Source: Eledone cirrhosa
Taxonomy: Eukaryota
Direction: 5' to 3'
DNA length: 64,000 nucleotides
Assembly (NCBI GenBank): GCA_964016885.1
Contig: OZ024750.1
Location: forward strand, 12,896,001 to 12,960,000
In this document: positions 42,001-64,000 of the stretch, in pieces
How positions within the stretch are numbered: position 1 is the first letter of the stretch
Layout of the letters: each line of letters starts with the position of its first letter
The notes under the pieces: generated by a model
The model's database searches: none
Told to the model about the DNA's origin: nothing
The model's input: the letters and a program-made list of their open reading frames with translations, nothing else
Translations under genes and position numbers: made by a program

Positions 42001-45000
42001 ACAATAGCAGTTGTAGTTTCTGCACGCTCACCAACGCCAACATTGTTCTGGGCTGACACAGCGAAAAAGTAAGGAACGCCAGTTTTTAAGAAATCAGCTT
42101 TGTAGTATTCTTCAGCAAATTTAGTTGTTGCAATCTTAGTCCATTTGGTGGATGATTCTTCACGCATTTCGATAATATAATTTGTAATCTTTGATCTTCC
42201 GTCCTCTTTTGGTGGTTTCCAGTCCATGACAACATAGTCTAATCCCACCTTTGTTGTTCTTAAGTCAACAGGAGTTCCAGGAAAAACTGATAAATGGAAA
42301 TAAATAAAAAAATATATTGTTGATATAACTATAAATTTGTTAAACATACAGTAAAAGAAAGTAGTATTGGAAAGTACTATAAATGTCATAAATGAGAGGA
42401 AAATGAGGGAAAGAGCAAGGACAATTAGATAAAGGAAGAAAGAAAGAGGGAAGAGGAGAGGGTGACAGACTTAGATCAGAGCAGTGTTTTAGCTGTGCCC
42501 CACGGATAATGACCAGCAACAGATGTTGCAACTGTCATCCCACCTTGCAGGGCTTCTTTCTCAAGCAGGCTGCTATCAATCTGATTTTCAGAAGAGGTCA
42601 GCTGTCCAGGGTCCGAGGACATGTGAGGTCTTAACAGTGACTAATGCAAAGAGGAAGTGGCCAGACAAGCTCTGATATTTGCGTGTCTTCTTGTCCTCTG
42701 CATTGTGAGCCATGGTAGCAGGGTTTGGGGCCAAGGTGACTAAGTTGGAGATGGAGAATGTGTCACAACATGAATTAAAACAAAATTAGGAAAATAATAA
42801 TATAACTTAAAAAACTTTAACATTTAAATTATTATTATTATTGAAATATTAAATTGAGCTAATTTTGAATGCTGTTCATCTATTTTCAATAATGAGAAGA
42901 GAAATGAATGAATACCTGTATTTTTCTGAGGTTGTACAGATTCTGTTGACTCTAATGGTTGACTTACTCCTTCTTCATTAAATGCAGAGATTCTGAAATG
43001 ATACTCAGTGTCATCTCTTAGGTCAAAAACTGTTAATTTGGTTGTTTTACCATCAGTTTCTCCAATTTTGACCCATGTAGGTCGAGTCTTTGCTCTCATT
43101 TCCACAATATAACCAAGCAATGGAGATCCTCCATCTGATCTTGGTGGACTCCAAATGACATCACAGAATCTGTCAGATACATTGTCATATAACACAGGTC
43201 CTGTTGGAGTTGTTGGTTTACCTAAAATATTAGCAAAAAATTATATTATATAATGTTGATAACATAATTAAAATAACCAAAGCTAAATGTATAAAACTGA
43301 ATATTTTTTAGAATATTTCAAGCATTGAAAAGTTAAACTTACCAAAGGGACTTTTGATCTTTGTAGTTAAGTCAGTAACAAGTGGATCACTGTTACCAAC
43401 TCTATTGACAGCAGTTACTCGGAAATCATATTCTGTGTCTTCAGTTAAGTCTTTAATGTTGTAAGTTGTTATATTTGCTGGTACACGATCAATTTGACTC
43501 CAGTATGATCGCACAGACTCTTTCTTTTCTAGTATATAAGATGTGAGAGGTGAACAGCCATCATCTTCAGGAGCATTCCAGCTTATGCTAGCAGAATTTC
43601 TGAGAACGTCAAACACTTTGATAGGACCTCTTGGTGTGGATGGTTTAGCTGAATAAATAGATTTGTGTAATAAATAAGTAGCCATAAAGTAAAAACAACT
43701 ACAAACAAGTGGGGAAATATTGGTTTCTGATTTAGGCACAAGGTCAACTATTTTGGGAGAGGGAAAAGTAGATTAAATCTACTCCAGTGCATTACTGGTA
43801 CTTTATTTTATCGACCCCCCCCCCCCCCATAAGGATGAAAGGCAAAGTTAATTTTGGTAGGATTTGAACTCAGAACATAAAGGGTTATAACTCTATGTCA
43901 AAGTATTTCGTCCAATGTTCTACCAATTACTGCCAATCCACCGCCCAGAGTGGAGAAATATTAAAAGACTTATTTTACATCAAACTATTTCTGAAAGACG
44001 ATTTTGTTTAAAAAGAAATATACACAAGAATATATATAATATATACTTCAATGGAATTTAAAACCCATATGATTATAATTTCTCTATAAAACCTATATAA
44101 CTTAATTACATTTATTTAATATTGAATAAAGGAAACATACCTAAAGGTCGTTTTGGTGTAACTGAATGATCAGCATCACAAGGCTTGCTCAAGCCTACGG
44201 AGTTTTCAGCAGAGACAGAGAAATAATAATCCACATTTTCTCTTAAACCTTTAACAGTGAACATATGTTCATATGCACTGACTGAAGTTATTTTCTCACG
44301 ATCTTCATAAATATCAAAGCGTTTATAAATAACGTAGTTGGTAATTTTAGATCCACCATCTGAAATTGGTGGTCTCCATTCTAAAACTGCAAAATCTGAT
44401 CCCACTTTAGTTGCTCTTAAGTGAATGGGAGGCTCTGGAAGATCTGAAATTGAACAAAAGAAATTATATTAAATTAACAAATAAAATACATACTTATTTG
44501 TGTGTATATATTTGTATGTGTGTGTGTATGTGTGTGTGAGTATGTCAATGTGGTTGTGTGTGTATATATATATGTGTGTGTGTGTGTGTCAGTGTGTGTG
44601 TAAAATATATGGAGCTTTCCAGGTATTTGAAGAACTATAATACCTACTTATTGAATTATATTGTAAGTGGCTGAATATTACTGTGCCATGGAAACATGGA
44701 AACAGAGAAGTTAAAATGTTTACCACAGTAATGACAATGATGATACTGATCCTGGTGATGATGATGATGACAATGGTGATGATGACAAGGTGATGATGGT
44801 TAATAAAATTAACAACTTACGTATATTCTTAGTAGTTTTTGTTGTATCATAGGTTTCCAGTGGTTGACTCTTTCCTTCTGAATTGATAGCTGTTACTCTG
44901 AAGAAATACTCAGTATCTTCATTAAGATCATGAACAGTGAAAGAAGTTGATTTACAGTCAACTGAACCAGCCTTAGACCAGGAAGAACGAGTTGAAGCTT

Positions 45001-64000: not shown

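Follow-up and report, generated by a model that had tools for sequence, protein, structure and literature searches.

What kind of protein is encoded by a long chain of fibronectin type III (FN3) domains with no immunoglobulin (Ig) domain among them, and what does the periodicity within such a chain record? The question is raised by a locus of the octopod Eledone cirrhosa, analysed here in a window of 64,000 nucleotides (assembly GCA_964016885.1, contig OZ024750.1, positions 12,896,001 to 12,960,000), whose minus strand carries 52 FN3 exons, d1 to d52, between 63488 and 14839, each encoding one domain. The array is probably the FN3-only part of a giant, kinase-less, spiralian titin/connectin-like thick-filament rod, where a triplet of domains would be the conserved register and a unit of nine would mainly be the size of the block that was last duplicated.

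A motif search recovered 48 of the exons and a profile built from those 48 raised the number to 52, the count given in a preliminary description of the locus. All are 294-306 nucleotides (nt) long, lie in phase 1-1 and have AG/GT ends, the acceptor of d43 having been set by hand at 29316, and together they amount to 15,798 nt, or 5,266 codons. Introns 1-50 measure 121-960 nt and intron 51 measures 7,706 nt. The five exons scanned with Pfam all matched fn3 (PF00041) at 40.5-59.5 bits, for a cut-off of 25, with DSCAM-type Fn3 among the secondary matches. When the clipped exon d0 at the window edge is included, the uninterrupted FN3 run comprises at least 53 domains.

Within d1-d24 (63488-43343) domains nine apart are on average 59.1% identical and those 18 apart 53.6%; the mean identity is 43.5, 45.1 and 44.6% at lags 3, 6 and 12, falls within 43.5-45.1% at lag 15, and is 30.8-34.0% at those lags from 1 to 17 that are not multiples of three. 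The autocorrelation peaks at lag 3 and more strongly at lag 9, and the best match lies at +9 or -9 for 21 of the 24 domains (at +18 or -18 for d2 and d20, at -6 for d18), as the preliminary description had predicted. None of 20,000 shuffles within the domain classes A, B and C matched the observed 12.8-point excess at lag 9, the shuffle maximum being 8.0, and the triplet signal exceeded all 5,000 full shuffles of domain order. In an IQ-TREE tree d1-d24 fall in nine groups by position modulo 9, with ultrafast bootstrap values of 81-100 and five of the nine groups starred; the alignment has 101 columns and the deeper forks are weak. The lag-9 excess and the tree groups bear out the earlier claim of a nine-domain super-repeat of A-B-C triplets, just as 24/9 (2.67) agrees with its estimate of about 2.7 repeats and a measured spacing of 7,190-8,381 bp (15 pairs) with its genomic period of about 8 kb. 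The motifs that it had placed at every ninth exon recur there, the coordinates being the low ends of the exons: ADH.V.P in d5, d14 and d23 (59384, 51799, 44141), SYDYVDLEW in d7 and d16 (58075, 49694), YDT and the (K/R)GL ends in d2, d11 and d20 (62334, 54238, 46032), PRGPIKV.D in d6, d15 and d24 (58633, 50533, 43343), and VPSMP with RTS.SIRW in d9 and d18 (55760, 47644). Its class motifs for A, B and C stand overall, with the exceptions that d3 and d9 end in ARSPY and AKCPF instead of KSP[FY], and that d5, d14 and d23 read VGxDFA.

The nine-domain period ends at d24, for in d25-d27 the lag-9 identity falls to 39-41% while the triplet is retained. Over d25-d51 identity is 39.2% at lag 6 versus 35.6% at lag 3, and the six-domain period of d25-d48 was equalled in 8 of 20,000 within-class permutations; shortened exons in this zone (43221-25204) are d29, d35, d41 and d47, of 300, 300, 294 and 300 nt. 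A nine-domain period in d25-d48 and a six-domain period in d1-d24 were both rejected (2,972 and 4,862 of 5,000 permutations respectively). The periods are accordingly nested, with 3 over d1-d51, 6 over d25-d48 and 9 over d1-d24. The six-domain period, which is new and lies beyond the limit of 43343 set in the preliminary description, is older than the nine-domain one.

Table 1. Features of the FN3 array and its surroundings in the 64,000-nt window
Feature	Position	Strand	Remarks
d0, 3' end of an A-type FN3 exon, clipped by the window edge	63984..64000	-	17 bases read ARSPF, then a GT donor
9-domain super-repeat I, d1-d9, order B C A B C A B C A	55760..63488	-	915 codons; spliced in run X4 contig
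Exons d1-d9	63488-63183, 62636-62334, 61689-61384, 60752-60447, 59686-59384, 58938-58633, 58380-58075, 57301-56999, 56065-55760	-	
9-domain super-repeat II, d10-d18	47644..55281	-	914 codons; d10-d15 spliced in run X4 contig
Exons d10-d18	55281-54976, 54540-54238, 53586-53284, 52808-52503, 52101-51799, 50838-50533, 49999-49694, 49068-48766, 47949-47644	-	
Partial super-repeat III, d19-d24 (positions 1-6)	43343..47232	-	49-61% identity to repeat II
Exons d19-d24	47232-46927, 46334-46032, 45783-45478, 45126-44821, 44443-44141, 43648-43343	-	
Older zone with 6-domain period, d25-d48	25204..43221	-	lag profile, permutation, domain classes common to gastropod orthologues
FN3 exons d49-d51	22851..24811	-	d49 and d50 group with Bulinus domains 37 and 38
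FN3 exon d52, orthologous to the final FN3 in the gastropod proteins	14839..15144	-	clusters with domains Bulinus 40 and Littorina 9 (0.94)
Candidate for an alternative last exon within intron 51: S/H/Y/Q-rich frame of 201 codons, phase-1 acceptor, stop	17607..18211	-	open frame only
Weak candidate for a tail exon following d52: S/T-rich frame of 51 codons behind a phase-1 acceptor, stop	11478..11635	-	family tail profile, E 1.7

An ancient tandem duplication of a nine-exon block, with introns no longer visibly homologous, had been proposed for d1-d24, and both parts of that proposal hold. Fourfold-degenerate sites at lag 9 match in 172 of 415 cases (0.41; chance 0.37), with no excess over other lags. 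Recent duplication or gene conversion was rejected, given that of the 857 codons with identical residues at lag 9, 428 differ synonymously (similar at lags 3, 6 and 18) and that the best 60-nt window is 51/60. Inherited intron homology was rejected as well: intron lengths at lag 9 are uncorrelated (rho 0.12, p 0.69), the intron ends likewise have no lag-9 signal, and the high scores come from the same few introns at many lags, the four top matches displayed being one element resembling a short interspersed nuclear element (SINE) that recurs at arbitrary lags. Copies of this element, of about 150 nt, lie in introns 1, 2, 5, 10, 14, 18 and 23, independently of the exon periodicity. Given that the silent sites are saturated and that the introns have only SINE-like copies in common, the duplications of d1-d24 are old; protein identity stays at 49-71% despite this saturation, and the domains are under purifying selection.

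Four read runs were available for the locus, all from one study and none catalogued as RNA, and the stretch mapped was 50500-63600. Run X4 yielded an intron-skipping contig of 11,241 nt that joins d1-d15. Among the joints listed (1,678 further ones exist), 10 of 15 are exactly the predicted introns 5-14 with canonical ends, and cross-mapping joints, such as that from 58369 to 50531, stem from paralogous exons. The eight listed pieces of the contig all lie within 2 nt of the positions expected of an uninterrupted d15-d1 transcript, so no Ig or other exon is inserted within d1-d15. By its length the contig would begin in d35, provided that no exon is skipped. Beyond d1 it runs on for 674 nt, so the gene extends past 64 kb, a continuation raised in the preliminary description and seen also in the A-type exon end at 64000-63984.

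Further downstream, no kinase or Ig domain was found below d51 in the 87 of 109 minus-strand open reading frames of at least 38 residues that were scanned with Pfam (22 of low complexity were dropped, and short exons can be missed), and a tblastn search with 13 Ig- or kinase-bearing relatives, twitchin included, placed none of 11,861 pieces outside the FN3 exons, though the FN3 fragment of 30 codons at the window start escaped this search too. The gastropod orthologues terminate at the equivalent of d52. The 201-codon frame in intron 51 matches no Pfam family and has no Atlas match, and the first AATAAA after it lies at 16891; in position it resembles an insert of 562 residues, outside any domain, that precedes the final two FN3 domains of the Macrostomum TITIN model P0342.

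The history of the array can be read from its relatives, for which 401 proteins were fetched (P numbers below) and lag profiles computed for the 21 whose FN3 domains number 15 or more, include a run of at least nine and score at least 65 bits on average. The closest named relatives among the matches listed are molluscs; no full-length cephalopod orthologue is named among them, in searches limited to 176-2,000 and 1,716-4,900 residues, which is not evidence of absence. The protein P0291 (Btru_006487) of the snail Bulinus consists of 40 FN3 domains and a 55-residue tail, with no Ig or kinase by Pfam, and is colinear with d33-d52 at an offset of 12 and a mean identity of 43%; P0034 of Littorina (V1264_012463) and P0032 of Lottia (LOTGIDRAFT_141638) cover parts of the same zone. 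When the last 12 domains of each protein were set against d41-d52, the colinearity was equalled in none of 20,000 permutations for Bulinus, P0010 and P0033, in 10 for P0011, 17 for P0355, 28 for P0272, 55 for P0353 and 223 for P0328. The controls, from Saccoglossus and Diadema, gave 1,351-17,594; as relatives of the array their FN3 runs were rejected, being not colinear, and they are treated as separate expansions. These FN3-only runs, of 15-31 domains, occur in P0005, P0131, P0292 and P0310 of Saccoglossus and P0007 of Diadema, and their lag profiles are flat, with a small peak at lag 12 in P0292 and P0310.

From P0291, P0034, P0313 (HELRODRAFT_191479 of Helobdella), P0353 and others a spiralian family is defined here, with a tail of 50-70 residues and the motif Y-x-D-x-P. 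Ten proteins served to build a profile of the short tail, and 19 of the 401 match it at their C-terminus, including those of Helobdella and three rotifer species and further records, in which an (Ig-Ig-Fn-Fn-Fn)n region is followed by 13-14 FN3 domains and then the short tail. In a fragment without tail from Lineus longissimus (P0348), a recent two-unit Ig-Ig-Fn-Fn-Fn repeat reaches 98% identity at a lag of six FN3 domains.

No nine-domain FN3-only period was seen among the 401 proteins, as far as the 21 lag profiles reach. The octopod paralogues at lag 9 (59%) are closer to one another than positional orthologues of octopod and Bulinus are (43%), and in d1-d24 the eight A domains fall with P0072 in a clade from which Bulinus is absent (0.95). 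Domains 10-18 of the Bulinus protein are recent triplet copies of 66-99% identity, based on a different A-type domain from that of the octopod. Given that the snail amplified triplets instead, the nine-domain unit is lineage-specific and the three-domain register is conserved; higher-order repeats arose more than once, in both molluscs as multiples of three FN3 domains. In the order of events suggested here, the old six-domain zone shared with gastropods would have come first, the B-C-A triplet would then have been amplified, and at least two duplications of the nine-exon block would have followed after the cephalopod-gastropod split, the array probably growing as unequal crossing-over copied blocks of exons in frame, three or a multiple of three at a time.

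As to function, the best PDB matches by profile are titin structures, the A-band super-repeats of 8G4L and 8Q6T and the Fn3 tandems of 8BNQ and 3LPW, those by single domain are 8Q6T, 8G4L and 8BNQ, and MyBP-C and myomesin come next after titin. The predicted structure of P0072 is all-beta (predicted local distance difference test, pLDDT, 90.5) and the same titin structures rank first for it. Vertebrate titin super-repeats are described as running along the thick filament and touching myosin tails (PMC10665186), with a rise of 3.98 nm per domain and 43.8 nm per 11 domains (PMC7427331); by this arithmetic three domains span about 12 nm, six about 24 nm, nine about 36 nm and all 52 about 0.21 µm. 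By homology, the octopod rod would be intracellular and lie along the thick filament, where it may bind axially to the myosin/paramyosin backbone as the titin A-band Fn3 chain binds myosin tails, and it could act as a scaffold or tether at least 0.2 µm long. Selection would keep the domains folded and the triplet phase intact, and the number nine would mainly record block size.

Several points weigh against such a rod. Its placement in muscle and on the thick filament is by homology, and the interdomain geometry of the P0072 model is unreliable (predicted template-modelling score, pTM, 0.38). Paramyosin filaments have a 72.5-nm period and a 14.5-nm repeat (PMC12040844), and the approximately 12 nm of three domains does not match the 14.5-nm crown spacing, which leaves the triplet register without an obvious partner. 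Terminal colinearity is weak between Helobdella and the octopod (2,245 of 20,000) and between the rotifers and Bulinus (981-4,425 of 20,000). Finally, the family tail exon was not found at significance in the window with the tail profile (best E 1.7): the frame at 11635-11478, which is the top minus-strand score below 23 kb, is without the Y-x-D-x-P motif. A further FN3-like exon with a good acceptor starts at 94 on the minus strand, 14.7 kb past d52, and runs off the window, so that either the gene continues or a second FN3 gene follows. Given this exon and the lack of a significant tail, the 3' end of the gene is uncertain.

It is possible that the nine-domain unit is instead a selected molecular ruler, with nine positions that each have a partner of their own as in the titin C-zone, and with a length of about 36 nm that equals half the 72.5-nm paramyosin period or the actin crossover. 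The actin crossover repeat is 36-37 nm, and a paramyosin core is general in molluscan thick filaments. For bivalves such a core is described in PMC12040844. Nine domains of 3.98 nm make 35.8 nm and 18 domains make five crowns of the paramyosin core; on the scale of titin, where approximately 1,080 residues take up 43 nm, 915 residues come to 36.4 nm. Despite the saturation of silent sites, position-specific motifs have persisted, and P0001, with 68% identity to d14, belongs to the position-5 group. However, a ruler is unlikely for four reasons: first, the Bulinus orthologue has no lag-9 peak (48, 46 and 42 at lags 3, 6 and 9), though molluscan thick filaments are generally cored in the same way. 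Second, P0072, of six domains, has plain triplets without nine-domain subtypes. Third, identity over positions 1-6 declines with distance between repeats (I-II 61, II-III 57, I-III 54), as a simple history of duplication predicts. Fourth, the thick filaments of squid arm are 7.4 µm long (PMC4757648), far longer than a rod of about 0.2 µm. It seems quite unlikely that the octopod has a one-piece titin of independent design, in which the array and a putative titin-like spring gene would form one transcription unit and the nine-domain unit would be tuned to half the 72.5-nm paramyosin lattice; were this true, a protostome A-band ruler would have evolved separately from the vertebrate 11-domain, 43-nm repeat.

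A mechanical spacer or tether, reaching for example from the filament tip to a dense body, would need no periodic partner, and the triplet phase would then be a frozen by-product of duplication. Phase-1 exons duplicate in frame in any whole number, the titin-like models of Saccoglossus and Diadema contain their long FN3-only runs with flat profiles, and the net charge per domain has, by eye, no clean three-domain pattern. Nevertheless, the periods of the octopod (3, 6, 9) and of Bulinus (3, 6) are all multiples of three despite separate origins, and the exon-length classes (303 nt for C, 306 nt for A and B) keep their phase throughout d1-d26 with the sole exception of d12, so that a spacer of this kind is improbable. 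That the array belongs to an extracellular, non-muscle FN3-rich adhesion or matrix protein of the usherin, sidekick or receptor-phosphatase type is barely credible, for although the search matches include FN3-only chains, 20-36 domains long, that belong to proteins of these or of unknown types, and the secondary Pfam matches include DSCAM-type Fn3, those chains score 29-63 bits per domain versus 97-110 for the molluscan, Lingula and closest other relatives, the best PDB matches are titin, MyBP-C and myomesin, and the relatives carry I-set Ig domains and end in a short polar tail with, by eye, no long hydrophobic stretch.

The window also holds a decayed element resembling a long interspersed nuclear element (LINE) on the minus strand at 3974-5363, with a reverse-transcriptase fragment at 3974-4273 (Pfam RVT_1, E 2.6e-5), and three intronic minisatellites, at 13311-13927 (42 bp x 15, open in several frames), 56389-56840 (47 bp x 10) and 53811-54015 (48 bp x 4).

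Arthropods and nematodes are reported to divide the work of titin, with Sallimus or Ce-titin as the spring of the I-band and projectin or twitchin as the binder of the A-band, the origin of the single chordate titin being left open (PMC12198301). The trees of that study include Octopus sinensis, and the protostome types named in its text are only Sallimus/Ce-titin and projectin/twitchin; the term 'FN3' occurs three times in the text and is absent from the text of the supplements, in a comparison of text rather than of figures. A description of an FN3-only super-repeat in a mollusc was not found in the literature searched, most subscription journals lying outside its reach. The family of molluscs, annelids and rotifers would represent an architecture of a third kind, without a kinase, for which databases give only the labels 'titin-like', 'twitchin-like' or hypothetical, and on which several higher-order repeats have been built: nine FN3 domains in the octopod, triplets in the snail, and, in a nemertean record of comparable architecture, a 2x5 unit. 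With such a series one can ask whether the length of a super-repeat follows the geometry of the filament or only the history of duplication, a question that the titin of vertebrates by itself cannot settle. The array, whose function is inferred, would also merit study in cephalopods, where the thick filaments of arm and tentacle muscle are about ninefold different in length (PMC4757648).

Of the known giant muscle proteins, vertebrate titin shares with the octopod array the Fn3 subtype of its A-band, as judged by the best PDB matches, the presence of position-specific super-repeats, and the adjoining of a shorter-period zone to a longer one (6 and 9 in the octopod; 7 in the D-zone and 11 in the C-zone of titin). 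Unlike titin, the octopod repeats contain no Ig and have one domain per exon, the longer period lies N-terminal to the shorter whereas titin has the reverse order, D then C, and no kinase was found either in the window or in Bulinus P0291. The Ig-Fn-Fn(-Fn) super-repeats in 7- and 11-domain units that mark chordate titin were not found in the array, d1-d15 being spliced without an inserted exon. The preliminary description had seen in the array an FN3-only counterpart of the titin C-zone, and this part is unsupported: classes A, B and C do not correspond to titin Fn positions, the gastropod orthologue is without the nine-domain period, and nine domains amount by arithmetic to about 36 nm (35.8) rather than titin's 43-44 nm. 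Given this difference from titin's 43 nm, the role of a C-zone ruler is unsupported. A derivation of A-B-C by loss of Ig from the Fn-Fn-Fn of titin or of the relatives was also unsupported, since the scores of A, B and C against the Fn that directly follows an Ig are no lower than those against the second or third Fn, or lie within 1.2 points of them. As the three classes are not aligned with titin's first, second and third Fn after Ig, the super-repeat would be convergent with that of titin rather than inherited, and the nine-domain repeat is likely to have arisen separately from the eleven-domain repeat of vertebrates.

Twitchin and projectin (UNC-22, bent) are likewise invertebrate giants with Fn3 arrays; d1-d24 average 45% identity to the best twitchin domain, and databases label some of the relatives 'twitchin-like'. 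Twitchin, however, is built of Ig-Fn-Fn units, of which the octopod array has none, and carries a kinase (PMC12040844), whereas no kinase was found in the octopod window, where twitchin queries match FN3 exons only. Closest are the spiralian titin-like models (P0291, P0034, P0032, P0313 and the rotifer P0353, P0355 and P0328), with a colinear terminal FN3 run and a similar end of the last FN3, although those of annelids and rotifers have Ig pairs upstream of only 13-14 FN3 domains and the octopod has at least 53 in a row. The connectin-like 1200K-protein of Neanthes (Izawa et al. 2005) is reportedly a giant of obliquely striated muscle with a PEVK-like region and 5- or 11-domain Ig/Fn3 super-repeats; it may be the annelid member of the family, which would fit the Ig-Ig-Fn-Fn-Fn relatives, and it reportedly differs from the octopod array in that its repeats contain Ig. 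In summary, by the features tested the array is neither chordate titin nor twitchin, and it is, as far as homology says, A-band-like.

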